A DNA stretch of 64,000 nt from assembly GCF_044324875.1 (NCBI RefSeq), contig NZ_CP172185.1. One strand, written 5' to 3'. Positions 1,044-31,393 of the stretch are shown piece after piece. Below the pieces are notes generated by a model that had not been told where the DNA came from, did not search any database, and saw only the letters and a list, made by a program, of their open reading frames with translations. This DNA comes from Escherichia coli. Its GTDB lineage: Bacteria; Pseudomonadota; Gammaproteobacteria; Enterobacterales; Enterobacteriaceae. Within the stretch, counting starts at the first letter, position 1, and each line of letters begins with the position of its first letter. The position numbers and the translations under genes are program-made.

Positions 1044-3052
<2,009 letters not shown>

Positions 3053-3060
3053 GAGAAAGT

Positions 3061-4281
3061 ATGACACCAGGCGGACAAGCTCAGATAGGTAATGTTGATC
3101 TCGTAAAACAGCTTAACAGCGCGGCGGTTTATCGCCTGATTGACCAGTATGGGCCAATCTCGCGGATTCAGATTGCCGAGCAAAGCCAGCTTGCCCCCGC
3201 CAGCGTAACCAAAATTACGCGTCAGCTTATCGAACGCGGGCTGATCAAAGAAGTTGATCAGCAGGCCTCCACCGGGGGCCGCCGCGCTATCTCTATCGTC
3301 ACCGAAACCCGCAATTTCCACGCAATCGGTGTACGGCTTGGTCGTCACGACGCCACCATTACTCTGTTCGATCTCAGTAGCAAAGTGCTGGCAGAAGAAC
3401 ATTACCCGCTGCCGGAACGTACCCAGCAGACGCTGGAACATGCCCTGCTGAATGCCATTGCTCAGTTTATTGATAGCTACCAGCGCAAGCTGCGCGAGCT
3501 GATTGCTATTTCCGTGATCCTGCCAGGGCTTGTTGACCCGGACAGCGGCAAAATTCATTACATGCCGCATATTCAGGTAGAAAACTGGGGGCTGGTAGAA
3601 GCACTGGAAGAGCGTTTTAAAGTGACCTGTTTTGTCGGCCACGATATCCGTAGTCTGGCGCTGGCAGAGCACTACTTCGGTGCAAGTCAGGATTGCGAAG
3701 ACTCCATTTTAGTGCGTGTCCATCGCGGGACCGGGGCAGGGATTATCTCTAACGGGCGCATTTTTATTGGCCGCAACGGTAACGTCGGTGAAATTGGCCA
3801 TATTCAGGTCGAACCGCTGGGTGAACGCTGCCACTGCGGCAACTTTGGCTGCCTGGAAACTATTGCTGCCAACGCTGCTATTGAACAACGGGTGTTGAAT
3901 CTGTTAAAGCAGGGCTACCAGAGCCGCGTGCCGCTGGACGACTGCACCATAAAAACTATCTGCAAAGCTGCGAACAAAGGCGATAGCCTGGCGTCGGAAG
4001 TGATTGAGTATGTGGGTCGTCATCTGGGCAAAACCATCGCCATTGCGATCAACTTATTTAATCCGCAAAAAATTGTTATTGCCGGTGAAATCACCGAAGC
4101 CGATAAAGTGCTGCTCCCTGCTATTGAAAGCTGCATTAATACCCAGGCGCTGAAGGCGTTTCGTACTAATCTGCCGGTGGTACGTTCTGAGCTGGATCAC
4201 CGCTCGGCAATCGGCGCTTTTGCGCTGGTAAAACGCGCCATGCTCAACGGTATTTTGCTCCAGCATTTGCTGGAAAATTAA
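3061..4281 (+). CDS. nagC: ROK-family transcriptional repressor of nag regulon
   Basis: 406-aa ORF with N-terminal HTH and ROK glucokinase-like domain (CHCGNFGCLE zinc motif); matches NagC. Confidence 0.97.
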   Translation: MTPGGQAQIGNVDLVKQLNSAAVYRLIDQYGPISRIQIAEQSQLAPASVTKITRQLIERGLIKEVDQQASTGGRRAISIVTETRNFHAIGVRLGRHDATITLFDLSSKVLAEEHYPLPERTQQTLEHALLNAIAQFIDSYQRKLRELIAISVILPGLVDPDSGKIHYMPHIQVENWGLVEALEERFKVTCFVGHDIRSLALAEHYFGASQDCEDSILVRVHRGTGAGIISNGRIFIGRNGNVGEIGHIQVEPLGERCHCGNFGCLETIAANAAIEQRVLNLLKQGYQSRVPLDDCTIKTICKAANKGDSLASEVIEYVGRHLGKTIAIAINLFNPQKIVIAGEITEADKVLLPAIESCINTQALKAFRTNLPVVRSELDHRSAIGAFALVKRAMLNGILLQHLLEN

Positions 4282-4328
4282 TGTGCTTTTATAGTGGCGC
4301 TTATTGTTGTCAATATTCTGGGTAGTCC

Positions 4329-5082
4329 ATGACCATTAAAAATGTAATTTGCGATATCGACGGCGTGCTGATGCACGATAACGTCGCCGTACCGGGTGCA
4401 GCGGAATTTTTGCACGGGATTATGGATAAAGGCCTGCCGCTGGTGTTGCTGACCAACTATCCTTCGCAGACCGGGCAAGATCTGGCGAACCGCTTTGCCA
4501 CTGCCGGTGTCGATGTACCTGACAGCGTGTTTTATACCTCTGCGATGGCGACCGCCGATTTCCTGCGTCGCCAGGAAGGCAAGAAAGCGTATGTGGTGGG
4601 CGAAGGCGCACTGATTCATGAACTGTACAAAGCCGGTTTCACTATTACCGATGTGAACCCTGATTTTGTGATTGTTGGCGAAACGCGTTCCTACAAACTG
4701 GGACATGATGCATAAAGCAGCCTATTTCGTCGCTAACGGTGCACGTTTTATCGCCACCAACCCGGACACCCACGGGCGCGGTTTTTATCCGGCGTGTGGT
4801 GCGCTGTGTGCGGGGATCGAAAAAATCTCCGGACGTAAACCGTTCTATGTTGGTAAGCCGAGTCCGTGGATCATCCGCGCAGCATTAAACAAAATGCAGG
4901 CGCATTCGGAAGAAACGGTGATTGTCGGCGATAACCTGCGTACCGATATTCTGGCGGGCTTCCAGGCCGGTCTGGAGACGATTCTGGTACTCTCCGGCGT
5001 TTCGTCGCTCGACGATATCGACAGTATGCCATTCCGCCCCAGCTGGATTTACCCATCGGTCGCCGAAATTGACGTTATCTGA
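4329..5082 (+). pseudogene. nagD: UMP phosphatase NagD/UmpH, interrupted by +1 frameshift (extra A in AAA run at 4696-4698)
   Basis: ORF track splits the gene into 4329..4715 and 4672..5082; total span 754 nt = 753+1; upstream frame reads ...VIVGETRSYKLGHDA* whereas intact NagD as I recall it reads ...VIVGETRSYNWDMMHKAAYF..., and the downstream frame continues NWDMMHKAAYFVANGARF... Confidence 0.85.
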
Positions 5083-5133
5083 ATACCACCCACGTCTGCG
5101 GACGTGGTTGGCTCTGATGACAAGCGCCAAACT

Positions 5134-6442
<1,309 letters not shown>

Positions 6443-6477
6443 GCAGCTCCTGCAATATATTGAATTTTCATGCTTTT

Positions 6478-6512
6478 GTAGGCCGGATAAGGCGTTCACG
6501 CCGCATCCGGCA
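6478..6512. repeat. REP palindromic element (second REP of a BIME-like pair)
   Basis: GTAGGCCGGATAAGGCGTTCACGCCGCATCCGGCA matches REP consensus. Confidence 0.6.
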
Positions 6513-6758
6513 TGAACAAATCGCACTTTGTCAGCAATTTGGCCCCCGTAAAATATAACCATTCAATAAAACCCGCTAAAAATTATCGATTCATCAATAA
6601 ATACATCCTTACACCAGACCTTTTTTCACCAATCGACAATCACCATTACGTTTTTTATTTTTTCACCGCCAAATCGCTTGCGCACAGTGCTGCTTTGCGG
6701 CATTTTTTTAAACAAGCAAACACAACAAGCAACAAATACCAGGTTAACGGAGAAGGTT

Positions 6759-8423
6759 ATGTGTTCAATTTTTGGCGTATTCGATATCAAAACAGACGCA
6801 GTTGAGCTGCGTAAGAAAGCACTCGAGCTGTCACGCCTGATGCGTCATCGTGGCCCGGACTGGTCCGGTATTTATGCCAGCGATAACGCCATTCTCGCCC
6901 ACGAACGTCTGTCCATTGTTGACGTTAACGCGGGGGCGCAACCTCTCTACAACCAACAAAAAACTCATGTGCTGGCAGTAAACGGTGAAATCTACAACCA
7001 CCAGGCATTGCGCGCTGAATATGGCGATCGTTACCAGTTCCAGACCGGGTCTGACTGTGAAGTGATCCTCGCGCTGTATCAGGAAAAAGGGCCGGAATTT
7101 CTCGACGACTTACAGGGCATGTTTGCCTTTGCCCTGTACGACAGCGAAAAAGATGCCTACCTGATTGGTCGCGACCATCTGGGGATCATCCCACTGTATA
7201 TGGGCTATGACGAACATGGTCAGCTGTATGTGGCCTCAGAAATGAAAGCCCTGGTGCCGGTATGCCGCACGATTAAAGAGTTCCCGGCGGGGAGCTATTT
7301 GTGGAGTCAGGACGGCGAAATCCGTTCTTATTATCATCGCGACTGGTTCGACTACGATGCGGTGAAAGATAACGTGACCGACAAAAACGAGCTGCGTCAG
7401 GCACTGGAAGATTCCGTTAAAAGCCATCTGATGTCTGATGTGCCTTACGGTGTGCTGCTATCTGGTGGCCTGGATTCCTCAATCATTTCCGCTATCACCA
7501 AGAAATACGCAGCCCGTCGCGTGGAAGATCAGGAACGCTCTGAAGCCTGGTGGCCGCAGCTGCACTCCTTTGCTGTAGGTCTGCCGGGTTCACCGGATCT
7601 GAAGGCAGCCCAGGAAGTGGCAAACCATCTGGGCACTGTGCATCATGAAATTCACTTCACTGTACAGGAAGGTCTGGACGCCATCCGCGACGTGATTTAC
7701 CACATCGAAACCTATGATGTGACCACTATTCGCGCTTCAACACCGATGTATTTAATGTCGCGTAAGATCAAGGCGATGGGCATTAAAATGGTGCTGTCCG
7801 GTGAAGGATCTGATGAAGTGTTTGGCGGTTATCTTTACTTCCACAAAGCGCCGAATGCCAAAGAACTGCATGAAGAGACGGTGCGTAAACTGCTGGCCCT
7901 GCATATGTATGACTGCGCCCGTGCCAACAAAGCGATGTCAGCCTGGGGCGTGGAAGCACGCGTTCCGTTCCTCGACAAAAAATTCCTCGACGTGGCGATG
8001 CGCATTAACCCACAGGATAAAATGTGCGGTAACGGCAAAATGGAAAAACACATCCTGCGTGAATGTTTTGAAGCGTATCTGCCTGCAAGCGTGGCCTGGC
8101 GGCAGAAAGAGCAGTTCTCCGATGGCGTCGGTTACAGTTGGATCGATACCCTGAAAGAAGTGGCGGCGCAGCAGGTTTCTGATCAACAGCTGGAAACTGC
8201 CCGCTTCCGCTTCCCGTACAACACACCGACCTCAAAAGAAGCGTATCTGTACCGGGAGATCTTTGAAGAACTCTTCCCGCTTCCGAGCGCCGCTGAGTGC
8301 GTGCCGGGCGGCCCGTCCGTCGCGTGTTCTTCCGCTAAAGCGATTGAGTGGGATGAGGCGTTCAAGAAAATGGACGATCCGTCTGGTCGTGCGGTTGGCG
8401 TTCACCAGTCGGCGTATAAGTAA
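6759..8423 (+). CDS. asnB: Asparagine synthetase B (glutamine-hydrolysing)
   Basis: ATG at 6759 after GGAGAAGG RBS; 554 aa MCSIFGVFDIKTDAVELRKKALELSRLMRHRGPDWSG...; the ORF-track start at 6678 is an in-frame upstream extension. Confidence 0.95.
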   Translation: MCSIFGVFDIKTDAVELRKKALELSRLMRHRGPDWSGIYASDNAILAHERLSIVDVNAGAQPLYNQQKTHVLAVNGEIYNHQALRAEYGDRYQFQTGSDCEVILALYQEKGPEFLDDLQGMFAFALYDSEKDAYLIGRDHLGIIPLYMGYDEHGQLYVASEMKALVPVCRTIKEFPAGSYLWSQDGEIRSYYHRDWFDYDAVKDNVTDKNELRQALEDSVKSHLMSDVPYGVLLSGGLDSSIISAITKKYAARRVEDQERSEAWWPQLHSFAVGLPGSPDLKAAQEVANHLGTVHHEIHFTVQEGLDAIRDVIYHIETYDVTTIRASTPMYLMSRKIKAMGIKMVLSGEGSDEVFGGYLYFHKAPNAKELHEETVRKLLALHMYDCARANKAMSAWGVEARVPFLDKKFLDVAMRINPQDKMCGNGKMEKHILRECFEAYLPASVAWRQKEQFSDGVGYSWIDTLKEVAAQQVSDQQLETARFRFPYNTPTSKEAYLYREIFEELFPLPSAAECVPGGPSVACSSAKAIEWDEAFKKMDDPSGRAVGVHQSAYK

Positions 8424-8435
8424 GAAATGCGGTAC

Positions 8436-8463
8436 TGCCCCGGAGAAATCCGGGGCTGTTTTA
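8436..8463. terminator. Bidirectional rho-independent terminator between asnB and convergent 145-aa ORF
   Basis: GCCCCGG-agaaat-CCGGGGC hairpin followed by TGTTTT. Confidence 0.6.
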
Positions 8464-8464
8464 G

Positions 8465-8902
8465 TTATTGAGCTGCTTGTTGATTCTGATATGCAGTAAG
8501 GAAATGTTCCGGGTTTGCCACATCACTGTTTGACAACTCATCACTGTAGGCCACCGACCAGGTCGCCTGCTCATCCGGAATATGCAGGCTGCCATTCCCC
8601 TCTTTCAGGCGTAATAACTCAAAAGATTTGCCCTTAATTACGGCGGTATAGGATTTTTCACCTTCCTGTAATGCTTTCACTTTACAGCGAAAAATATGGC
8701 CATCGATGTCATTATCAACATGCGATACCTGAATGAGGGCTTCATTAGAGGCTTTCGGCCCTATCCGCATCATCCACACCACAGCGCCTTCCTGCCCACG
8801 ATAGCCAAAAACATATTTACCGATTTCCGGTTTGACCGTATCGGCAAACGCAGATTGCATAAGTAATAACGCACCCATCAGCGCCGTCATAAAACGCAGC
8901 AT
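8465..8902 (-). CDS. Hypothetical secreted protein (145 aa, signal peptide, no family recognised)
   Basis: ORF with GAGGGA RBS 5 nt upstream of ATG; N-terminus MLRFMTALMGALLLMQSAFA-DTVK looks like a Sec signal peptide with AFA-D cleavage site; E. coli-like codon usage. Confidence 0.6.
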   Translation of the reverse strand: MLRFMTALMGALLLMQSAFADTVKPEIGKYVFGYRGQEGAVVWMMRIGPKASNEALIQVSHVDNDIDGHIFRCKVKALQEGEKSYTAVIKGKSFELLRLKEGNGSLHIPDEQATWSVAYSDELSNSDVANPEHFLTAYQNQQAAQ

Positions 8903-15267: not shown

Positions 15268-16806
15268 ATGGCTTTTGCCTCATTAATTGAACGCCAGCGC
15301 ATTCGCCTGCTGCTGGCGTTATTATTCGGTGCCTGCGGAACGCTGGCCTTCTCTCCTTGCGACGTCTGGCCTGCGGCGATTATTTCGCTGATGGGGCTTC
15401 AGGCGCTGACCTTTAACCGCCGTCCACTCCAGTCTGCCGCTATTGGCTTTTGCTGGGGATTTGGTCTCTTTGGCAGCGGTATTAACTGGGTCTATGTCAG
15501 CATCGCGACTTTTGGCGGAATGCCTGGCCCGGTTAACATCTTCCTGGTGGTGCTGCTGGCGGCGTATTTGTCGCTGTATACCGGACTGTTTGCTGGCGTG
15601 CTGTCGCGTCTGTGGCCGAAAACCACCTGGCTGCGCGTGGCGATTGCCGCCCCTGCTCTCTGGCAAGTGACCGAGTTTCTGCGCGGTTGGGTGCTGACCG
15701 GCTTCCCGTGGTTACAGTTCGGCTATAGCCAGATTGATGGCCCGTTAAAAGGGCTGGCACCGTTAATGGGCGTGGAAGCCATTAACTTCCTGCTGATGAT
15801 GGTTAGTGGCCTGCTGGCACTGGCGTTGGTCAAACGCAACTGGCGTCCGCTGGTGGTGGCCGTCGTGCTGTTCGCTCTTCCCTTCCCGCTGCGTTACATC
15901 CAGTGGTTCACCCCGCAACCGGAGAAAACCATTCAGGTTTCGATGGTTCAGGGCGATATTCCGCAATCACTGAAATGGGACGAAGGCCAGCTTCTTAATA
16001 CGCTGAAGATTTACTACAACGCAACGGCACCGCTGATGGGCAAATCATCGTTGATTATCTGGCCGGAGTCGGCGATAACCGATCTGGAAATTAATCAGCA
16101 ACCGTTCCTCAAAGCACTGGACGGTGAGTTGCGCGATAAAGGTAGCTCGCTGGTCACCGGGATTGTCGACGCGCGTCTCAATAAGCAGAACCGCTACGAT
16201 ACCTACAACACCATCATCACGCTGGGGAAAGGTGCGCCGTACAGCTACGAATCAGCCGATCGCTATAACAAAAACCATCTGGTGCCGTTTGGCGAGTTTG
16301 TCCCGCTGGAGTCGATTCTGCGTCCGTTAGCGCCGTTCTTTGATCTGCCGATGTCGTCGTTCAGCCGTGGGCCATATATCCAGCCACCGCTGTCGGTAAA
16401 CGGTATTGAGCTTACTGCGGCTATTTGCTACGAGATCATTCTCGGCGAGCAAGTGCGTGATAACTTCCGCCCGGATACCGACTACCTGCTGACCATCTCC
16501 AACGATGCGTGGTTTGGTAAATCTATTGGTCCATGGCAACACTTCCAGATGGCGCGAATGCGTGCGCTGGAGCTGGCGCGCCCGCTGTTGCGTAGCACCA
16601 ATAACGGTATTACGGCGGTGATTGGCCCGCAGGGGGAGATTCAGTCGATGATCCCGCAATTCACCCGCGAAGTGTTAACCACTAACGTGACACCGACCAC
16701 CGGACTCACACCATACGCACGTACCGGCAACTGGCCGCTGTGGGTACTGACGGCACTGTTTGGTTTTGCCGCTGTGTTGATGAGTCTGCGAGCACGTAAA
16801 CGTTAA
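15268..16806 (+). CDS. lnt: Apolipoprotein N-acyltransferase
   Basis: 512 aa [30 protein letters not shown]...; multi-TM N-terminus plus C-N hydrolase domain. Confidence 0.96.
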
Positions 16807-16883
16807 TGTGCCTGATGTATCCGGCATAAACAAAACATACTTTCTCTTTGAGCTGTGGGGCGTGATTATCATGCCCCTTTTTC

Positions 16884-18761
16884 TTACGGTTCAGGGATAC
16901 AAGCCACATCGCCATATTGGGGATGCCGAATAATTGCCTGCGGATCAAGCGAGCGCGTCCTGTCCATTTGGATTAACCCGTTCTTCGCCATAACAAATAT
17001 CTTTCTACCATCCGCTGAAAAACGAAGATGATTAACGTAGCTGGCAGGATAAACGCCAATAATCTGCCCGGCATTAATATTGAGCAGAATGACATAACCT
17101 TGCAGGCCATATGACACCAACGCTAAATACTGACCGTCCGGGCTAATACCCTCAACGGAATAAACGCTCCTGCTACACCATTGCGTCATAATGCTGGCTT
17201 GCTGATCCCCAACTCTTATACGTGAAATCCCCTGGCTGTCGGCAAAAATTACATCCCCGTTTTCAGGTCGAAAACGCATCGCCGATATCGTTCCACGCGC
17301 ATCACTAGCCGGATAGCTTTCTTTTTGATGCGTGATGGTATTGATGCGTACAATGTCACCTCTGACCATACCGGGTATCAACAATGTTTTTTCATCCGGG
17401 GAAAGTGCCATAACCCAGGCGCCTGGTTTACCGCTCGTCCCCGTCCCGTCGTATTTCTCCAGCGGGATATCCGCCACATGCTGATAAGCCACCAGATCAA
17501 TGGCTGACACACTATTACTGGTGCGATTCATCACCCAGGCTTTTGTGCCATCGCGCGAGAGGATAAGGCTGTCAGGATGTGCGCCGGTGGTAATCGACTG
17601 AATAATCTCCCCCGTCGCCACGTTAATGACCGATAACGCATTCGCTTCAAATGAAGTTGCATAAAGCAACGTTTCATCCGGGCTTAACGCCAGCGATCTG
17701 ACGGCCTGATCTTTACAGCCACCACAATGTTTGAGTGACTTTTCTTTCGCTATGGGCGCTGTAAAGGTATGCAGGATTTTCTTTTGTCCGAGGTCGAAAA
17801 CAACAATGCTGTTGGTGTTTTCAATTGCGGCATACAACGTATTACCATCCCGACTGATCGCCATATCATGGATATCGGCAATCTCAGCGAGCAAATCACC
17901 ACTGGCCTGCTCACGACTTACCGGAGCGGATAATGTTTCCCTGAGGGCGTTGCGCTCCTCCACTAACTGCTGCTTTTTTTGTCGTCGCTCTTGTTCAATC
18001 TCCTGCGGATAAAACTCTTCACGCAGGCTGTGCCTGACCAGTAAAACTGATTCATCAATCTGCTGCTGCACAAGCCAGATAGCCCCGGTAAGAAGAAGAC
18101 TGCCCGCAACAATAATCCCGCCTTCCGTAACAAGCCGGTTTTGCCCAGATAAACGCGCACTCAGCCACCCCAACGCACCACCCGCAATCAGGCCGCCAAT
18201 ATGACAAGCATTATCTATTCCTGTTTGCCGGGCACCATACAACAGTGTCAGCGCCACCATACCCAACAGAGAAAATACTCGCCGCTGGTTTTTATGGTAT
18301 GTGCCCGCACCTGAAGCAAGCTGTGTTGCTATCGCAGCGCCAGCAATTCCCATAATTGCCCCGGATGCCCCAACGCTGATGACTATCTGCTCACTTTCGC
18401 GTAACGCATAACAGGCGCTGATTAGCCCACCAAAGACGCCAGAGAATAGCCAGACAATCAGGAGTCGCCATTTCCCCAGTATCCGTTCCGCCACTGCCCC
18501 CACCACCAGGAGTGCAAACATATTCATCAGCAAATGGGGAAAACTACTGTGCAGAAAGACACTGCTCAATAAGCGCCAGGGTTCACCCGACAACGTGAGA
18601 GAAGCAACGTTAGCACCAAGATGGATGAGTGCGGATTGATCGACGTCTTCATAACTCATCCATTGTGCGAGATAACAAAATATCCCAACACAGAGCGCAA
18701 AAAGGATAAGAGTTATTGCGGGTAATTGAACATTTAACGGCTTAACCGAAGATGCAGACAT
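16884..18761 (-). CDS. Rhomboid-family intramembrane serine protease fused to C-terminal YVTN-type beta-propeller domain (625 aa)
   Basis: AAGGA-like RBS before ATG (reverse complement at 18759-18761); N-terminal 6-TM rhomboid core with WR loop motif, GASG (Ser133) and CHIGGLIAG (His187); 7th TM; coiled-coil-like EEFYPQEIEQERRQKKQQLVEERNALRE; then six repeats of the S-x-DG-x-x-LY/V...N-S-V-S-V/I-D type. Confidence 0.8.
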   Translation of the reverse strand: MSASSVKPLNVQLPAITLILFALCVGIFCYLAQWMSYEDVDQSALIHLGANVASLTLSGEPWRLLSSVFLHSSFPHLLMNMFALLVVGAVAERILGKWRLLIVWLFSGVFGGLISACYALRESEQIVISVGASGAIMGIAGAAIATQLASGAGTYHKNQRRVFSLLGMVALTLLYGARQTGIDNACHIGGLIAGGALGWLSARLSGQNRLVTEGGIIVAGSLLLTGAIWLVQQQIDESVLLVRHSLREEFYPQEIEQERRQKKQQLVEERNALRETLSAPVSREQASGDLLAEIADIHDMAISRDGNTLYAAIENTNSIVVFDLGQKKILHTFTAPIAKEKSLKHCGGCKDQAVRSLALSPDETLLYATSFEANALSVINVATGEIIQSITTGAHPDSLILSRDGTKAWVMNRTSNSVSAIDLVAYQHVADIPLEKYDGTGTSGKPGAWVMALSPDEKTLLIPGMVRGDIVRINTITHQKESYPASDARGTISAMRFRPENGDVIFADSQGISRIRVGDQQASIMTQWCSRSVYSVEGISPDGQYLALVSYGLQGYVILLNINAGQIIGVYPASYVNHLRFSADGRKIFVMAKNGLIQMDRTRSLDPQAIIRHPQYGDVACIPEP

Positions 18762-19215
18762 GAGGTAATTCTTCCTTGAAAAGACAGGTAAAAAGCATTT
18801 TTCTCGTGTGCAGTTACCATCCCGGCAAACGTCCCATACCGAAAAGTTAACCCTGTCCGAAATATGACTTTTTCAGCCTGAAATTACAATCGTAATTAAT
18901 TCACCCCTAACTATTTTTTGGCATGTAAGTTGCTTTAATTACTGTGTAAGCAATGAAATCAGCCGCAACGAAACCGGGTTGCACCACCACAAATCAACGG
19001 TAGCGCCAAAAAGGTGCGGTTTAAGAATTTTGCTTCGGAATGGTGCGGCGCATCTCGCAAAAACAAACAATAAAACAGCAATATCTTTACATTTAGCCAA
19101 ACTAAATGTTACCTAACAAGCACAACACTGCACAATAAAGTTGCAGATGATAACAACACAAACACTCACAACGGGTATCCATGCGTTCTTAACGCAGAAG
19201 ATAAAGGAGTTGGAT

Positions 19216-23569: not shown

Positions 23570-25240
23570 ATGGATAATGCAGAACTCGCCATTGGTATCG
23601 ATCTCGGTACTACCAATAGTTTAATTGCCGTCTGGAAAGACGGTGCCGCGCAATTAATTCCAAATAAGTTCGGTGAATATTTAACACCATCCATAATTAG
23701 CATGGATGAAAATAATCATATTTTAGTCGGAAAACCCGCTGTATCACGGCGCACTTCGCATCCGGATAAAACGGCAGCGTTATTTAAACGTGCAATGGGC
23801 AGTAATACCAACTGGCGGTTAGGCAGCGACACATTTAACGCGCCAGAACTGTCCTCTTTGGTATTACGCTCATTAAAAGAAGATGCCGAAGAATTTCTGC
23901 AACGTCCGATTAAAGATGTGGTGATCTCCGTTCCGGCTTATTTCAGCGATGAACAACGCAAGCATACCCGTTTAGCAGCGGAGTTAGCCGGGTTAAATGC
24001 GGTACGCTTAATTAATGAACCCACAGCAGCTGCGATGGCATATGGCCTGCATACGCAACAAAATACCCGCTCGCTGGTTTTTGATCTCGGTGGCGGCACG
24101 TTTGACGTCACGGTGCTCGAATACGCCACGCCGGTGATTGAAGTTCACGCCTCCGCTGGCGACAACTTTCTTGGCGGCGAAGATTTTACTCATATGCTGG
24201 TGGATGAAGTTTTAAAACGCGCCGCAGTGGCTAAAAACATGCTCAACGAAAGTGAGCTGGCAGCCCTGTACACCAGCGTGGAAGCGGCAAAATGCGGCAA
24301 TCAATTACCGCTGCAAATTAGCTGGCAGTATCAGGAAGAAACGCGTGAGTGCGAATTTTACGAGAACGAACTGGAAGATTTGTGGTTGCCGCTGCTCAAT
24401 CGCTTGCGAGTGCCGATTGAACAGGCGTTGCGCGATGCACGTCTGAAGCCCAGTCAAATCGACAGTCTGGTGCTGGTTGGCGGCGCATCACAAATGCCGC
24501 TGGTGCAGCGAATCGCCGTACGTCTGTTTGGCAAATTACCATATCAAAGTTACGACCCGAGCACCATTGTCGCGCTGGGCGCAGCAATCCAGGCCGCCTG
24601 CCGCTTACGCAGTGAAGATATTGAAGAGGTGATCCTCACTGATATTTGCCCTTACTCGTTGGGTGTTGAAGTTAACCGCCAGGGCGTTTCCGGCATTTTC
24701 TCGCCGATAATTGAACGAAACACCACTGTACCGGTGTCGCGTGTAGAAACTTACTCGACCATGCACCCGGAACAGGATTCAATTACGGTTAACGTCTATC
24801 AAGGAGAAAATCACAAAGTTAAAAATAACATTCTGGTGGAATCCTTTGATGTGCCGTTGAAGAAAACCGGGGCTTATCAGTCGATTGATATTCGCTTTAG
24901 TTATGATATCAACGGGTTGCTTGAAGTTGACGTGCTTCTGGAAGACGGCAGCGTTAAGTCCAGAGTCATTAATCACAGTCCTGTAACATTGAGCGCACAG
25001 CAGATTGAAGAGAGTCGGACGCGGTTATCCGCATTGAAAATTTATCCGCGCGATATGCTCATCAACCGTACCTTTAAAGCCAAACTGGAAGAGTTGTGGG
25101 CGCGGGCGCTGGGTGACGAGCGAGAAGAGATCGGCCGGGTGATCACCGATTTTGATGCGGCGTTGCAGTCAAACGATATGGCCCGCGTCGATGAAGTTCG
25201 GCGACGGGCGAGCGATTATTTGGCTATTGAGATCCCTTAA
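23570..25240 (+). CDS. hscC: Hsp70-family chaperone HscC
   Basis: 556 aa MDNAELAIGIDLGTTNSLIAVW...; Hsp70 ATPase motifs IDLGTTNS, DLGGGTFD. Confidence 0.95.
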   Translation: MDNAELAIGIDLGTTNSLIAVWKDGAAQLIPNKFGEYLTPSIISMDENNHILVGKPAVSRRTSHPDKTAALFKRAMGSNTNWRLGSDTFNAPELSSLVLRSLKEDAEEFLQRPIKDVVISVPAYFSDEQRKHTRLAAELAGLNAVRLINEPTAAAMAYGLHTQQNTRSLVFDLGGGTFDVTVLEYATPVIEVHASAGDNFLGGEDFTHMLVDEVLKRAAVAKNMLNESELAALYTSVEAAKCGNQLPLQISWQYQEETRECEFYENELEDLWLPLLNRLRVPIEQALRDARLKPSQIDSLVLVGGASQMPLVQRIAVRLFGKLPYQSYDPSTIVALGAAIQAACRLRSEDIEEVILTDICPYSLGVEVNRQGVSGIFSPIIERNTTVPVSRVETYSTMHPEQDSITVNVYQGENHKVKNNILVESFDVPLKKTGAYQSIDIRFSYDINGLLEVDVLLEDGSVKSRVINHSPVTLSAQQIEESRTRLSALKIYPRDMLINRTFKAKLEELWARALGDEREEIGRVITDFDAALQSNDMARVDEVRRRASDYLAIEIP

Positions 25241-25247
25241 ACACGGC

Positions 25248-25279
25248 TGCCGGATGCGGCATAAACGCTGCATCCGGCA
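25248..25279. repeat. REP palindromic element between convergent hscC and djlC
   Basis: GCCGGATGCGGCATAAACGCTGCATCCGGC palindrome of REP type. Confidence 0.6.
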
Positions 25280-25299
25280 TCGGCGCAAAAAACACTTCC

Positions 25300-26751
25300 T
25301 CAGCTAAACAACATCGCGATTTTTCCGAGAGCATAACCTATCACCAGCACCGTTAAGCTGATTTTGATAATGCTGGTAATGCTCTGTGGTTTTTCATCCT
25401 CATCATTTTTTTCTTCGTGGTTTTCAGGTGTTGGCTCATCGACATCTTCATCCTCCGGCTCGAGTTTCACTTTCGTCAACAGCATCCGGGTGATAATGGC
25501 CTCTAATGGATGAGCATCTCCACCTTCCAGCCTTGTATTAAGACGGGCCAGCATCTCTTGTTTCGGGAACGCTTCCAGCACAACCTGTTCCGCTACCCGA
25601 TACAAATCCAGTAACGGTGAATCTTGTTCTGTCTCGCTACCGACTCTCGATTTCCACCACGCCCATGCTTTGCGCTTGAAGAATAACGACTCAATAAACG
25701 ATTGACCTAACGGCGATAATTTTCCGCTATGTAAAATTTCCGCCCATAACAGCCGCGTCCGGGCGCTCTCACCAGGAACATATTTCAACGGTTGACCTTG
25801 CGCATCAACCATGCTCTGCGCTTCGATAACCATCACTAACAGCGCGAAATAATCCGGGCAATGACGCTTGCTCCACTGCAACAACAAATTATCGGCTTGT
25901 GTAGATGGGTAACTCTCCCGGTATGCGCAGAGATCGGCAAGCAGGCTTTCCCCCTCGCCACAGTACAACCGTTGCGCACACTGGTAATAACGGGCATCTT
26001 CGCTTTCTGGTTCTTCTGCTTGCCACTGTTGGGCAACAGGAATGAGTTCCGCCATACCTCTTTTCACCGAGCTGTACCAGCGCAACAGTTTGCGATGTAA
26101 CTTGACATCATCAGGAATGAACCACGGACCTTCCATTGCCATAAACGCAGTGACATAGTCGGGATGGTAACGGCAACAGCGTTCCAGCGCGAAGTAATAC
26201 TCAACAGTCTGGTTCTGCAACGCGACGGGATATTCCAGAAGGCTAAGGAAATCGAAACAATCACCAGCCTGAATGGCCTCAAGAAAAGCCTCCCTTTCTT
26301 CCTCATCCATTCCTTCGCTGTCATTAAACGAATGCCAGTTCAAACGCTCTGCCAGCAAAGAAGCACAATTTAATGAAAGATATCGCGCTTCTATAGCGAT
26401 TGCACACAGCGGCCAGCGTAATTGATCGACATCCTCCATGTTCCAGGTATTTAATTGCTGAATAAATTTCTGCCAGGCGGAGGGCTGAAAACGATCACTT
26501 TCTGAATCCAGTAATGTCCTGAATGCACGTAGTATTTCATGTTCAGCGGCGGCATCTTTTTCTTCATCATCTGCTTCCTCGACAGGATTTACCGCCAGTC
26601 GCAGCGCCTCTTCATAGGCCTGGCGTAATGCTTTAAACCCCTGCGGATCGGTTTCGGGATGACACAACGGTAAGCGAGCAAGATAAGCCTGGCGGATAAT
26701 GTCTATTTGCGTCGTGCTTTCAATTTCGAGGATTTGCCAACATGTTTTCAT
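25300..26751 (-). CDS. djlC: J-domain-like membrane-anchored co-chaperone (HscC partner)
   Basis: 483 aa [39 protein letters not shown]...; C-terminal hydrophobic anchor [19 protein letters not shown]; paralogous to djlB. Confidence 0.9.
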
Positions 26752-27455
26752 AGGTCGCTCACATCCTTAAGCGTTACCGGGCATTCAGGCTGGGCAGTCA
26801 ATGGCTGCCAGGGAAGCGTGGCATAGAAACGATCGCTTCCCGCTGCCAGCTCTTCGAACATCCGACTCCCGGCGCTATCGTATTTGTACAGGGTTAGCGC
26901 CTCGCGTAACGAAGCGTTGTCTTCGCATTGAGAAGATTGCCAGTAGAGACGCCCTAGTGAATAGGCAGAAAAATAGTGCATCCAGCTGTGATAGTAATGG
27001 TGTGCTCGGACATAGATGCGCGATTGCAGCCATAAACTCTCTTCTTCCGTCAGCCACTTGTTGAGCACACCGACCCGTGACAGAAACCCCATTCGAACAT
27101 AATCCCAGGCTTTGATTCCCCCTTCTCCACAGCACATAGCGGTTTGGGCAACGAATTGGGTATAAATCAACCCTCTCTCCGAGCCACCAGCAATTAATGC
27201 TTTCCACTCTTCAGGGGAAGAGCGATGCCATGTCAGATATAAGCCAGCTAAATCATTGGCATGACCATCATCGGTCATCTGATAAATAGTCTGAATTAAA
27301 TCATCACGATTATTTATTCCCCAGGATGATGAGAGATCGAATTCTTTTATCCCGGTATACATTTTTGGCGAGTCATGCGCGGGCTTGCAACCCTGATTAA
27401 GTATTTCCATGGGCGTAGAAAGCGCAAAAAGAAGATATTGTTCTTCCTTATTCAT
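26748..27455 (-). CDS. ybeU: Conserved hypothetical protein YbeU (paralog of YbeR)
   Basis: 235 aa [33 protein letters not shown]...; 4-bp overlap with downstream djlC start. Confidence 0.9.
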
Positions 27456-27556
27456 TTGTTAATAATCCCTTAAGTGCATTAACTGACTACTTTTTTATTA
27501 TTGATGAGTATAAACTTGACGCTTTCAAAATAAAAAGAAAATCGAAGTATTCACAC

Positions 27557-28111
27557 ATGAATAAAAAATTAATGTATATATTCGCAATATTTATAGTTGC
27601 AGCAATAACCTGTATTAGTCAACCCAAGAAAACGACGTTGCGTGATAAAGCCATGGTGAATTATGCCTTTGATTATTTAAGCTCACCGGGCAGTCTTCCA
27701 TTCACCACGGCAGCCACGGAGCTTTCCGCGATTCATGGTCACTCAACGTCGCAATATCGCCTTGGAGAATTTTATCTTCATGGTAGCGACGGTAAACCAC
27801 TGGATTATACACAGGCGAGATACTGGTATGAGCAATCAGCGGAACAGGAAAATCCACGCGCGCAAAGTAAACTGGGGTGGATCTACCTCAAAGGTCTGGG
27901 GGTCAAACCCGATACCCGTAAAGCAATTCTCTGGTATAAGGAAGCAGCTGAACAAGGGTATGCTCATGCTCAATATACTTTAGGTTTGATCTACAGAAAC
28001 GGCTCAGGTATTAATGTTAACCATTATGAATCTCAAAAATGGTTAAAACTGGCCGCCAAACAACATTACAAAAATGCGGAAAGATTACTTGCCGGGCTTC
28101 CCGCACATTAA
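27557..28111 (+). CDS. ybeT: Sel1-repeat (TPR-like) protein with N-terminal signal/anchor
   Basis: 184 aa; repeats of the AQ..LG..Y..G.GV..D...A..WY..AA.QG type. Confidence 0.9.
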
Positions 28112-28120
28112 CGTCGACTG

Positions 28121-29548
28121 TCACCCGAACAGATGGAGTATTTTCCCTATCAAACCAGCAAAGATAAAAATATAGAAAATAATTTTGATGACGCCCAGAC
28201 AGCCCGGCCCACCATCGTCAACGGGCATTGGCTGCGGTTGCGGCTCCGGTTCAACAGTTTGCTTCTCGGTAAAATTCGCCGCCTGAATTAATAATCGACG
28301 AATAATTAATGCTTCCAGTGGACAACGATCTTCTGCATCAAGGCGGCTCACAATCGGCATTAATGATTCTTCTGTCGGTTGGCTGGCCTGCACTAATTGT
28401 TTGGCAACTAGATATAATGGCCATAAGGGATGTTCTGTATCACGCGTGAGTGAGATCCGCGGCTTACGTCCTTTGTGCAAAACCATCTCGACCAGAGAAC
28501 GCCCCAGCGCAGAGAGTTTTTCATCACTGAGTATTTCGTATAAATGAAAACGCGTACGAGCGCTGTCACCAGGGACATAAAGTAGCGGTTTTCCCTGATC
28601 GTTAACCAGATCACGCGCTTCAATCATCATCACCACTAATGGGTAATAATCGACCCGATGCTGACGGCACCATTGCAACATTAAAGCATCCGCCTGGGTG
28701 GAGGGATACTCGCGCCAGTAGTCACAAAGTTCTGCCAGCAGGCTTTCGCCTTCTCCACAATAGACGCGTTGCGCGTATTCATAATAACGCGCATCTTCAT
28801 TATCAGGTTCAGCTTCCCGCCACGACCGGGCGTAATCCAGAAGTTCGGGGATTCCCAGGCGGCTTGCGCTATACCAGCGGAGTAAATTTCTGTGCAGTTT
28901 TGCATCATCGGGGATAATCACTGCGCGATGTTGCGCTAAATACAATGTCAGCCATTCTGGATGCGATGACCAAATCCGAGCGAACATTTGGTAAAAATCG
29001 ATGGTGTCATTTTGCACGGCAACGGGCAGATGCAGAATGGTCTGGAAGTTAAAAACATTCCCCTTCGCAATGGCATATAAAAAGGATTCCAGTTCTTCTT
29101 CGTCTATTTCCCCGGTGTTTTCCTCCTGCAACCACCGCAGTCTTTCTGCTAATAACACCACGCACTCGAAGGATAAATGGGCAGTGTTCATGGCGATTGT
29201 GCACAGCGACCAGCGTAATTCATCAATCTCTTCCATCGAGCAATAATTTAATTGCTGAATGAATCGCTGCCAGGCGGAAGGCAGAAAACGTTCGCTATCA
29301 GAGGCGAGTAACGCACGAAAGGCGAGCAGAATTTCATGTTCTGCAACTTCATGTTCTTCTGGTTGCCAAACAGATTTAGCAGGGGACTGCGCAATCCGTA
29401 GCGCATCCTCATACGCCTGACGAAGTTGTTTAAAACCCTGCGGATCTGTTTCTGGATGAAAGGACGGTAACAAGGCCAGATAAGCGCGACGGATAATATC
29501 GACGTCAGTCGTTTGAGGTATATCGAGGATCTGCCAGCAAGTTTTCAT
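28121..29548 (-). CDS. djlB: J-domain-like membrane-anchored co-chaperone (paralog of DjlC)
   Basis: 475 aa [39 protein letters not shown]...; C-terminal hydrophobic anchor. Confidence 0.9.
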
Positions 29549-30252
29549 AGGTCGCTCATATCCTTAAGCGTTTCCGGGCATGTGGGGTAGTCAACCAGTG
29601 GTTGCCAGGGTAAGGTCGCGTAATATGCATCGTCACTGGCAAATAATTGATAAAACATATCATTGCCGGAATCGTCGTATTCTTTACGCGCTAAGAATTC
29701 ACGTAATAACTGAAGATTATCATCTTCGGGAGACTGCCAATATTGCCGACCAAAGGTATAACCGGCAAAGTATTGCTGCCAGTTACTATAATAACGTAGC
29801 GCCCGTAGATGAATGCGCGACTGGATCCATAGACTTTCTTCTTCGCTTAACCAGTTATTAAGTACGCCCATTCGGCTTAAAAAACCCATCCGGACATAAT
29901 CCCAGGCTTTAATTCCTCCCTCACCACAGCATTCGGCGGTGCTGGCGACAAATTGCGCATAAGCCTGACCTTGCTCATTTAATTCAGCAAGATAGTCACG
30001 CCATTCACATGGCGAATAACGAAACCAGCAGTGATAAAACCCTGCCAACCGCGCGGCATGACCGTTATCAATCATTCGGTGAATTGTGCGCAGCAGGTCA
30101 TCACGGTCATCAATTCCCCAGGAGGAAGAAAGGTCAAAAAAGCGTGTACCTAAATACATTTTGGGAGATGAATGCGAAGGTAAACAGCATTCATTGCGTA
30201 TTTCCATCGGAGTGGAAAGTGCAAACAATATTTTTTGCGACTCCATGTCCAT
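29545..30252 (-). CDS. ybeR: Conserved hypothetical protein YbeR (paralog of YbeU)
   Basis: 235 aa from ATG (reverse complement at 30250-30252) after AAGGA RBS: [23 protein letters not shown]...; ORF-track start 30279 is 9 codons longer. Confidence 0.88.
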
Positions 30253-30409
30253 ATAATTTATCCTTAAATATTCATTCAATGAATATTAACCACGTTGCGA
30301 GGCTCATTTATTTATACTTTTCTGACGCAACATAATACGCATAAAATAAGGCTTACGCAAAAATGGAACACATAAAAATATAATATGTTTTATATGCAAC
30401 CATAAGGAA

Positions 30410-31393
30410 ATGATAATGATTTTTACGTCAAGTTGCTGCGATAATTTATCAATAGATGAGATTATCGAACGTGCTGAAAAAGGCGATTGCGAGGCTCAAT
30501 ATATTATTGGGTTTTATTATAATCGCGATAGCGCAATTGACTCTCCGGACGACGAAAAAGCCTTCTACTGGCTGAAGCTGGCCGCTGAGCAAGGCCATTG
30601 TGAAGCACAATATTCCTTAGGGCGGAAATACTCCGAGGATAAAAGCCGTCATAAAGATAATGAGCAAGCCATCTTTTGGCTGAAAAAAGCTGCCCTACAA
30701 GGCCATACTTTCGCTTCCAACGCCCTTGGCTGGATACTGGATCGTGGAGAAGACCCCAACTATAAAGAAGCGGTTGCCTGGTATCAGATAGCCGCGGAGA
30801 GCGGAATGTCTTATGCGCAAAATAATCTTGGATGGATGTACAGAAATGGCAACGGAGTCGCTCAAGACTATGCGCTGGCATTTTTCTGGTACAAACAAGC
30901 TGCATTACAAGGCCATAGTTACGCACAAGACAATCTGGCCGATCTTTATGAAGACGGAAAAGGCGTTGCTCAAAACAAGACACTCGCCGCATTCTGGTAT
31001 TTGAAAAGCGCACAGCAGGGTAATCGGCATGCCCAGTTTCAAATTGCATGGGATTATAACGCTGGCGAAGGGGTGGACCAGGACTATAAGCAAGCCATGT
31101 ACTGGTATCTGAAGGCTGCCGCTCAGGAAAGCGTCGGCGCTTACGTCAACATCGGTTATATGTATAAACATGGACAAGGCGTTGAGAAAGATTATCAGGC
31201 CGCCTTTGAATGGTTTATGAAAGCCGCTGAATGCAATGACGCCACTGCCTGGTATAACCTGGCCATTATGTATCACTACGGAGAAGGAAGACCTGTCGAT
31301 CTCCGACAGGCTCTCGACCTGTATCGTAAAGTTCAGGCATCCGGTACCAGGGATGTCAGTCAAGAAATCCGTGAGATTGAAGATTTACTGTAA
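30410..31393 (+). CDS. ybeQ: Sel1-repeat protein
   Basis: 327 aa with at least 7 Sel1-like repeats (A.YNLGWMYRNGNGVAQDY..AFFWYKQAA.QG). Confidence 0.9.
   Translation: MIMIFTSSCCDNLSIDEIIERAEKGDCEAQYIIGFYYNRDSAIDSPDDEKAFYWLKLAAEQGHCEAQYSLGRKYSEDKSRHKDNEQAIFWLKKAALQGHTFASNALGWILDRGEDPNYKEAVAWYQIAAESGMSYAQNNLGWMYRNGNGVAQDYALAFFWYKQAALQGHSYAQDNLADLYEDGKGVAQNKTLAAFWYLKSAQQGNRHAQFQIAWDYNAGEGVDQDYKQAMYWYLKAAAQESVGAYVNIGYMYKHGQGVEKDYQAAFEWFMKAAECNDATAWYNLAIMYHYGEGRPVDLRQALDLYRKVQASGTRDVSQEIREIEDLL

Follow-up and report, generated by a model that had tools for sequence, protein, structure and literature searches.

Introduction

A BLASTP survey of Shigella sonnei returned two rhomboid proteases only, GlpG and SSON_0610 (UniProt Q3Z4D6) (Liu et al. 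2020, EMBO J, PMC7232013). SSON_0610 was described with candidate catalytic residues Ser133 and His187 and with seven predicted transmembrane (TM) helices, and was therefore named Rhom7 (PMC7232013). It cuts a reporter carrying the TM domain of TatA (TatA-TMD), an activity abolished by S133A or H187A, and variants deleted of the seventh helix (ΔTM7) or of the C-terminal domain (ΔCTD) stay active on the same reporter; in addition, plasmid-expressed Rhom7 cleaves HybA, as well as FdnH when FdnI is absent, and FdnH P259A is resistant (PMC7232013). In the present work we have analysed an open reading frame (ORF) lying between lnt and gltI in a 64,000-nucleotide stretch of Escherichia coli DNA (contig NZ_CP172185.1 of assembly GCF_044324875.1; hereafter the window), whose gene region, over the region tested, is 100% identical to E. 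coli 042 (NC_017626.1). The encoded 042 protein is very probably the orthologue of Rhom7, that is, an active inner-membrane rhomboid carrying a seven-bladed periplasmic beta-propeller, and its gene, though dispensable, has long resided between lnt and gltI.

Rhomboid core, seventh helix and orthology to Rhom7

The original prediction, made from the letters of the window alone, had described a 625-aa minus-strand ORF, convergent with lnt and divergent from gltI, that encodes a complete rhomboid core followed by a seventh TM helix, a charged linker and a six-repeat YVTN-type propeller placed in the periplasm by a 6+1 TM topology. The ORF list and the RefSeq annotation agree with the gene and its orientation, lnt (15268-16806, plus strand) being convergent and gltI (annotated start 19216, plus strand) divergent, and homology searches together with AlphaFold2 (AF2) structure prediction uphold both the rhomboid fold and the beta-propeller (PF01694, TIGR02276, AF2). 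The features of the membrane part and of the linker are as follows, conservation being given for an alignment of 62 full-length family members:

16884-18761, minus strand: rhom7 coding sequence, 625 aa plus stop, ATG start (ORF list; RefSeq EC042_RS03565 / WP_001276739.1)
18147-18761, minus strand: predicted six-helix catalytic core, residues 1-205 (PF01694; PDB sequence matches to GlpG and iRhom; six helices in AF2)
18573-18578, minus strand: WR motif, Trp62-Arg63, in the periplasmic L1 loop (Arg63 invariant, Trp62 in 59/62)
18363-18365, minus strand: codon of the candidate catalytic Ser133, within GASG (131-134) of TM4 (invariant, 62/62)
18201-18203, minus strand: codon of the candidate catalytic His187, within CHIGGLIAG (HIGGLIAG from the histidine on) of TM6 (invariant, 62/62)
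18063-18137, minus strand: predicted seventh TM helix, residues 209-233 (hydropathy at ~210-233; AF2 helix)
17937-18053, minus strand: predicted charged helical stalk, residues 237-275, ~40 residues (AF2 helices 237-250 and 252-275)

The Pfam Rhomboid model PF01694 matches residues 59-201 (18159-18587) with an E-value of 4.2e-29 and 102 bits, and the three motifs of the core lie where the original prediction had placed them. Both dyad patterns of active rhomboids (PF01694 / MEROPS S54) are present, GxSG as Gly131-Ala-Ser133-Gly134 and HxxGxxxG at His187, as is the HxxxxHxxxN pattern of TM2, whose His71, His76 and Asn80 are invariant or nearly so. The 042 protein bears every sequence hallmark of an active rhomboid, and proteolytic activity, shown for the S. 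sonnei orthologue, is predicted for it. Only ~14 residues precede TM1, leaving no cytoplasmic N-terminal domain. A Lys/Arg-rich loop (203-212) precedes the seventh helix and fits the cytoplasmic side, the segment 232-300 counts 9 Lys/Arg against 15 Asp/Glu, and the loop charges altogether obey the positive-inside rule for an N-in, seven-helix, C-out topology.

Proteins labelled as S. sonnei match the 042 protein at 93-94% identity and 100% coverage; orthology to SSON_0610 / Q3Z4D6 was judged through these S. sonnei-labelled matches, to which the identity values refer. The Rhom7 features (Ser133, His187, seven TM helices and a C-terminal domain) are all present in the 042 protein, and its 90%-identity cluster comprises 8814 mostly full-length members, including proteins of E. 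fergusonii and S. flexneri. Since S. sonnei has only two rhomboids and the 042 protein falls far under the GlpG cut-offs (scores are given below), its assignment to Rhom7 is secure. The gene is thus already known, being annotated in RefSeq as 'rhomboid family intramembrane serine protease' (EC042_RS03565 / WP_001276739.1) and having an experimentally characterised orthologue in S. sonnei (PMC7232013), and the novelty implied by the original prediction falls away. The C-terminal fold of Rhom7, on the other hand, is not named in the searchable literature, the word 'propeller' being absent both from PMC7232013 and from a 2025 review that lists Rhom7, and a literature search found no paper linking a bacterial rhomboid with a periplasmic beta-propeller.

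The predicted C-terminal beta-propeller

Behind the stalk, the C-terminal domain carries the following features:

16953-17897, minus strand: predicted seven-bladed YVTN-type beta-propeller, residues 289-603 (TIGR02276; 1l0q; AF2; YncE-family matches in AFDB50)
17715-17726, minus strand: Cys346-x2-Cys349 in a blade-2 loop (93% conserved; loop of low pLDDT)
16887-16952, minus strand: C-terminal tail, residues 604-625, with the conserved Cys621 (present in 88% of 60 members)

The YVTN repeat model TIGR02276 scores 54.4 bits on the C-terminal domain against a curated cut-off of 27.85, the YncE-like model PF21783 matches with an E-value of 2.3e-4, and 1l0q, the YVTN propeller of a Methanosarcina surface-layer protein, is matched by sequence at an E-value of 2e-23. 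The AF2 model has a mean predicted local distance difference test (pLDDT) score of 87.6 and a predicted template modelling (pTM) score of 0.70, and it consists of seven long membrane helices, the stalk and the propeller, with pLDDT above 80 in most 10-residue blocks of residues 289-603. Within residues 289-600 it holds 28 strands, that is, seven four-stranded blades. A Foldseek search of the PDB placed 1l0q on top, followed by seven-bladed WD40 propellers, all top matches being seven-bladed. In AFDB50, the top-ranking full-length matches carry the name 'Peptidase S54 rhomboid domain-containing' and share ~25% identity with the query, and the propeller alone finds YncE-family and YVTN proteins. 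The C-terminal domain is therefore predicted with high confidence to be a closed seven-bladed propeller. The YVTN type claimed by the original prediction is confirmed, whereas its count of six repeats has to be raised to seven blades; the seventh helix and the charged linker appear much as it had drawn them.

Cysteines of the membrane core are unconserved across the family, and the conserved Cys pairs are confined to the C-terminal domain. Cys346 and Cys349 are 93% conserved and are always present or lost jointly, with loss in 4 sequences; their spacing is Cx4C in 42 of the 58 members keeping both cysteines and Cx2C in 9, which form the E. coli clade. Cys529 (codon 17175-17177, minus strand) and Cys621 (codon 16899-16901, minus strand) are 88% conserved and were lost jointly in 6 of the 8 sequences without the full pair. 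The simplest reading for an oxidising compartment is that the two pairs probably form two periplasmic disulfides, which fits a propeller in the periplasm. Together with the positive-inside charges, these pairs are in line with the 6+1 arrangement of the original prediction, and the propeller is predicted with high confidence to lie on the periplasmic face of the inner membrane. Within the propeller, conservation is highest in the Cys-x2/4-Cys loop and in blades 2-3.

Wider family

According to a profile-free search run exhaustively on 1.84 billion representatives, the rhomboid-propeller architecture is that of a family reaching beyond the Enterobacteriaceae. Among the best 150 matches, over 50 clusters (at 50% identity) hold proteins of 600-690 aa that align with the query end-to-end at 27-35% identity. 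Named sources seen for the family include Budvicia, Cedecea, Trinickia, Pseudoduganella and Paraburkholderia. A scan of genome contigs with the family alignment used rhomboid-core patterns, and the matches listed were mostly generic rhomboids with a handful of full-length relatives. Many of the nearest rhomboid cores outside the family are of the GluP type with a C-terminal tetratricopeptide repeat (TPR) domain, which suggests that varied repeat ectodomains have been mounted on a common 6+1 scaffold.

As a single case on which we do not build, the homologue of Cedecea neteri (NZ_BCTL01000039.1, examined locus 1069-7866; ~27-29% identity) lies 370 bp downstream of, and on the same strand as, a gene for a type VI secretion effector of the BTH_I2691 family, and also downstream of two ExIF-family putative effector genes.

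Distribution, empty sites and the IS5 copy of K-12

Among 5426 complete E. coli genomes, rhom7 is carried by 3231 (~60%), presence being taken as at least 80% coverage of a 2.5-kb query spanning the gene, and nearly all of the remaining genomes match the query flanks only. The gene was seen, among others, in 042, Nissle, W and Ecol_AZ159, and empty sites were seen in K-12 derivatives, O157:H7 and several enterotoxigenic E. coli (ETEC) strains. The gene is thus not universal in the lnt-gltI gap, as the original prediction had supposed in calling it strain-variable. Comparison of the two kinds of site gave the following features:

16801-18971: segment found in rhom7 carriers; at empty sites, unrelated filler of ~155 bp stands in its place (intergenic regions of O157:H7 and K-12 compared with the window by BLAST; right boundary uncertain by ~70 bp)
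19109-19116: equivalent of the K-12 insertion point of IS5, ~100 bp upstream of gltI and outside the rhom7 segment (comparison of the K-12 and O157:H7 intergenic regions)

The rhom7 indel is a replacement and not a clean excision. The O157:H7 filler (1608-1765 of its examined locus) contains GCCGGATGCGGC-type sequence, which we take to resemble a repetitive extragenic palindromic (REP) element. No convincing rhom7 remnant was found in the O157:H7 filler, where the local alignment scored 44, no more than the top score among 200 shuffled controls.

The original prediction had also placed an IS5 copy of K-12 at the position of rhom7, in its stead, and here it was mistaken. The K-12 derivative has the O157:H7-type empty site plus an IS5 of ~1.19 kb, and the O157:H7 site is empty and IS5-free. 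Since the insertion point lies in DNA common to all strains, outside the rhom7 segment, IS5 did not replace the gene; the absence of rhom7 and the insertion of IS5 are two independent events. Among the strains sampled, IS5 was found in the lnt-gltI gap only in K-12-derived or laboratory strains.

Proposed mechanism

In the mechanism that we propose, the six helices would form the catalytic core, with the Ser133-His187 dyad, the WR motif in L1 and HxxxxHxxxN in TM2. The seventh helix would then return the chain to the periplasm, where the ~40-residue helical stalk would hold the propeller. By orthology with the S. sonnei protein, Rhom7 of the window would cut single-pass inner-membrane proteins inside a proline-destabilised TM helix, its substrates being, as in S. 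sonnei, the anchor subunits FdnH and HybA without their membrane partners. Such a cut may license the further degradation of FdnH and HybA, which would amount to membrane-protein quality control. The propeller, finally, may use the folded periplasmic domains of natural substrates to select or gate these.

Age of the gene and alternative explanations

The patchy distribution among strains could be taken to mean that rhom7 is a foreign island that some E. coli recently took up between lnt and gltI, and its G+C content (0.47-0.51, with ~0.41 in the spacer upstream) is slightly below that of lnt (0.53-0.58). Against such an origin, dS between E. coli strains is the same for rhom7 (0.11-0.19, inter-lineage pairs) as for lnt and gltI (0.12-0.17). 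Klebsiella aerogenes, moreover, has a 51%-identical full-length homologue between lnt and gltI, with flanking genes 83-96% identical to those of 042, and in two further enteric lineages 54-57% identical homologues adjoin lnt, one of them also adjoining gltIJKL. No mobility genes or repeats flank rhom7 in the ORF list and the RefSeq annotation of the window. Recent horizontal acquisition is already contradicted by the dS values and the synteny, and we give it hardly any credence; the original prediction had likewise preferred a strain-variable chromosomal gene over a recent island. A second explanation holds that rhom7 is a decaying relic without a current function in E. coli, persisting as loss is slow, and that the activity seen upon over-expression is physiologically meaningless. 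It draws on the absence of the gene from ~40% of complete genomes, on the E. coli W (NC_017664.1) gene, annotated as a frameshifted pseudogene (2685-4561 of the examined locus), on split E. coli fragments in AFDB50 (a 349-aa 'outer membrane protein' and a 249-aa 'rhomboid family protein') and on several truncated protein clusters of 85-640 members each. The ratio dN/dS between E. coli strains lies at 0.18-0.28 for rhom7, which exceeds the values of its neighbours (lnt, 0.03-0.12; gltI, 0.01-0.07) by a factor of 4-10. Yet these values are well below 1, so that purifying selection continues to act on intact rhom7 alleles; all catalytic residues are unchanged throughout the 62 homologues, down to ~24% identity, genera ~50% diverged retain the full-length architecture at this locus, and the 90%-identity cluster of mostly full-length proteins is large (8814). 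We therefore consider a functionless relic improbable. The ratio is alike in the core, the linker and the propeller, and diversifying selection on the propeller was rejected at the whole-domain level (dN/dS 0.16-0.23, like the core). Taken together, these comparisons describe a gene that is inherited vertically, evolves fast and can be dispensed with; purifying selection on it is relaxed, and certain lineages have lost or disrupted it. Several points nevertheless weigh against our reading of the ORF as an active Rhom7. Frequent deletion and frameshift, with a dN/dS ~5 times that of lnt, show the gene to be dispensable; the cleavage of full-length HybA and FdnH, a point that also favours a relic, was described for plasmid-expressed Rhom7 only (PMC7232013). 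The 042 allele, whose activity is read across by orthology, is 6-7% divergent in amino-acid sequence from the S. sonnei-labelled proteins, and a promoter scan found no sigma-70 consensus promoter on the minus strand 5' of the gene. Conserved neighbours of distant homologues were not found in Budvicia, Cedecea, Trinickia, Pseudoduganella or one metagenome contig, unrelated contexts which indicate that there is no operon partner and offer no hint of function.

Keeping to an active Rhom7, the role of its propeller has also to be weighed. The propeller is not required for catalysis on a model substrate, as ΔCTD is active on the artificial TatA-TMD reporter (PMC7232013), the only experimental datum on the matter. 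Its most likely role would be to select or gate natural substrates via their folded periplasmic domains. In a more specific and tentative form of this role, possible but on the doubtful side, the propeller would sit above the active site, recognise the folded ferredoxin-type domains of orphan FdnH and HybA and either deliver these anchors to the protease or gate it; if this is true, the selectivity of Rhom7 would come from the ectodomain, rather than only from the instability of the substrate TM helix. Alternatively, the propeller could be a regulatory sensor of a periplasmic ligand or partner that switches the protease on or off, by analogy with the extramembrane domains of Bacillus YqgP/GluP that tune MgtE cleavage. 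That ectodomains are exchanged on a 6+1 scaffold is plausible given the many GluP-type TPR proteins among the nearest outside cores, and both the dispensability of the C-terminal domain for catalysis itself (PMC7232013) and the conservation of the Cys-x2/4-Cys loop with blades 2-3 are consistent with a sensor. However, no ligand-binding signature was found in the propeller, where the conserved residues of the family alignment are mostly structural YVTN repeat positions, and no conserved operon partner accompanies the gene, which leaves a sensor unlikely in our view.

Gene signals and neighbourhood

Two further signals were read in the immediate surroundings of rhom7:

18771-18777, minus strand: Shine-Dalgarno-like AAGGAAG, 9 nt 5' of the rhom7 ATG (read from the sequence)
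16857-16877, plus strand: terminator-like element for lnt, located where lnt and rhom7 converge and made of a G+C-rich hairpin with a T run behind it

On the other side of the gene, the mechanical ORF of gltI begins with a TTG codon (19141) that precedes the annotated ATG (19216) by 75 bp, and the annotated start matches all other strains examined. Elsewhere in the window, RefSeq has a frameshifted 'hypothetical protein' pseudogene at ~8244-8680 (773881-774317 of the record), between the glnX-metT tRNA cluster and asnB. A few kb past gltL-rihA, at ~24000-31300, lies a chaperone-related accessory cluster (hscC, djlC, ybeU, ybeT, a J-domain protein gene, ybeR and ybeQ); it holds paired DUF1266, J-domain and Sel1-TPR genes and looks like a duplicated module.

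Significance and comparison with known systems

Those who work with K-12 do so without this second rhomboid, which most pathogenic and commensal E. coli carry (042, Nissle and ~60% of complete genomes), and conclusions drawn from K-12 glpG mutants may thus not transfer. To what was known of Rhom7 our analysis adds three points: its C-terminal domain is predicted to be a YVTN propeller of seven blades, carried by a helical stalk and probably containing two disulfides; this architecture defines a family that extends beyond the Enterobacteriaceae; and rhom7 has long sat between lnt and gltI, yet is dispensable. The propeller may offer a concrete handle on how a bacterial rhomboid chooses its substrates; no new kind of system is opened, and the practical value lies mostly in the correct bookkeeping of rhomboids in E. 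coli strains.

Rhombosortases share the rhomboid core with the 042 protein; they lack a propeller and act on GlyGly-CTERM proteins, and membership was rejected with 46.4 bits on TIGR03902 against a cut-off of 84. The seven-bladed YVTN/YncE propellers (PDB 1l0q, 3vgz) resemble residues 289-603 in repeat sequence and fold, but are soluble or surface-layer proteins with no fusion to a protease; on the YncE equivalog model the 042 protein scores 32 bits against a cut-off of 400. With the YqgP/GluP type of Bacillus subtilis it has in common the 6+1 TM topology and a repeat-protein domain outside the membrane, and a role in the quality control of a membrane protein, proposed for Rhom7, is also that of YqgP/GluP. 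The two differ in that YqgP/GluP has a TPR ectodomain and a cytoplasmic N-terminal domain, whereas the 042 protein has a propeller and ~14 residues before TM1; having neither a TPR match nor an N-terminal domain, it was not assigned to this type, with which it shares the 6+1 topology alone. GlpG of E. coli, the prototype six-TM rhomboid, has the catalytic fold and motifs in common with it, and many GlpG structures were matched by sequence, yet GlpG stops at six TM helices, starts with a cytoplasmic N-terminal domain and lacks a periplasmic one; membership was rejected on the scores of TIGR04239 (40.9 against 250) and NF008155 (37.5 against 335). Rhom7 of S. sonnei, finally, shares with the 042 protein the catalytic numbering, the seven predicted TM helices and the C-terminal domain, and the two differ as alleles and in pathotype, 042 being an enteroaggregative E. 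coli.

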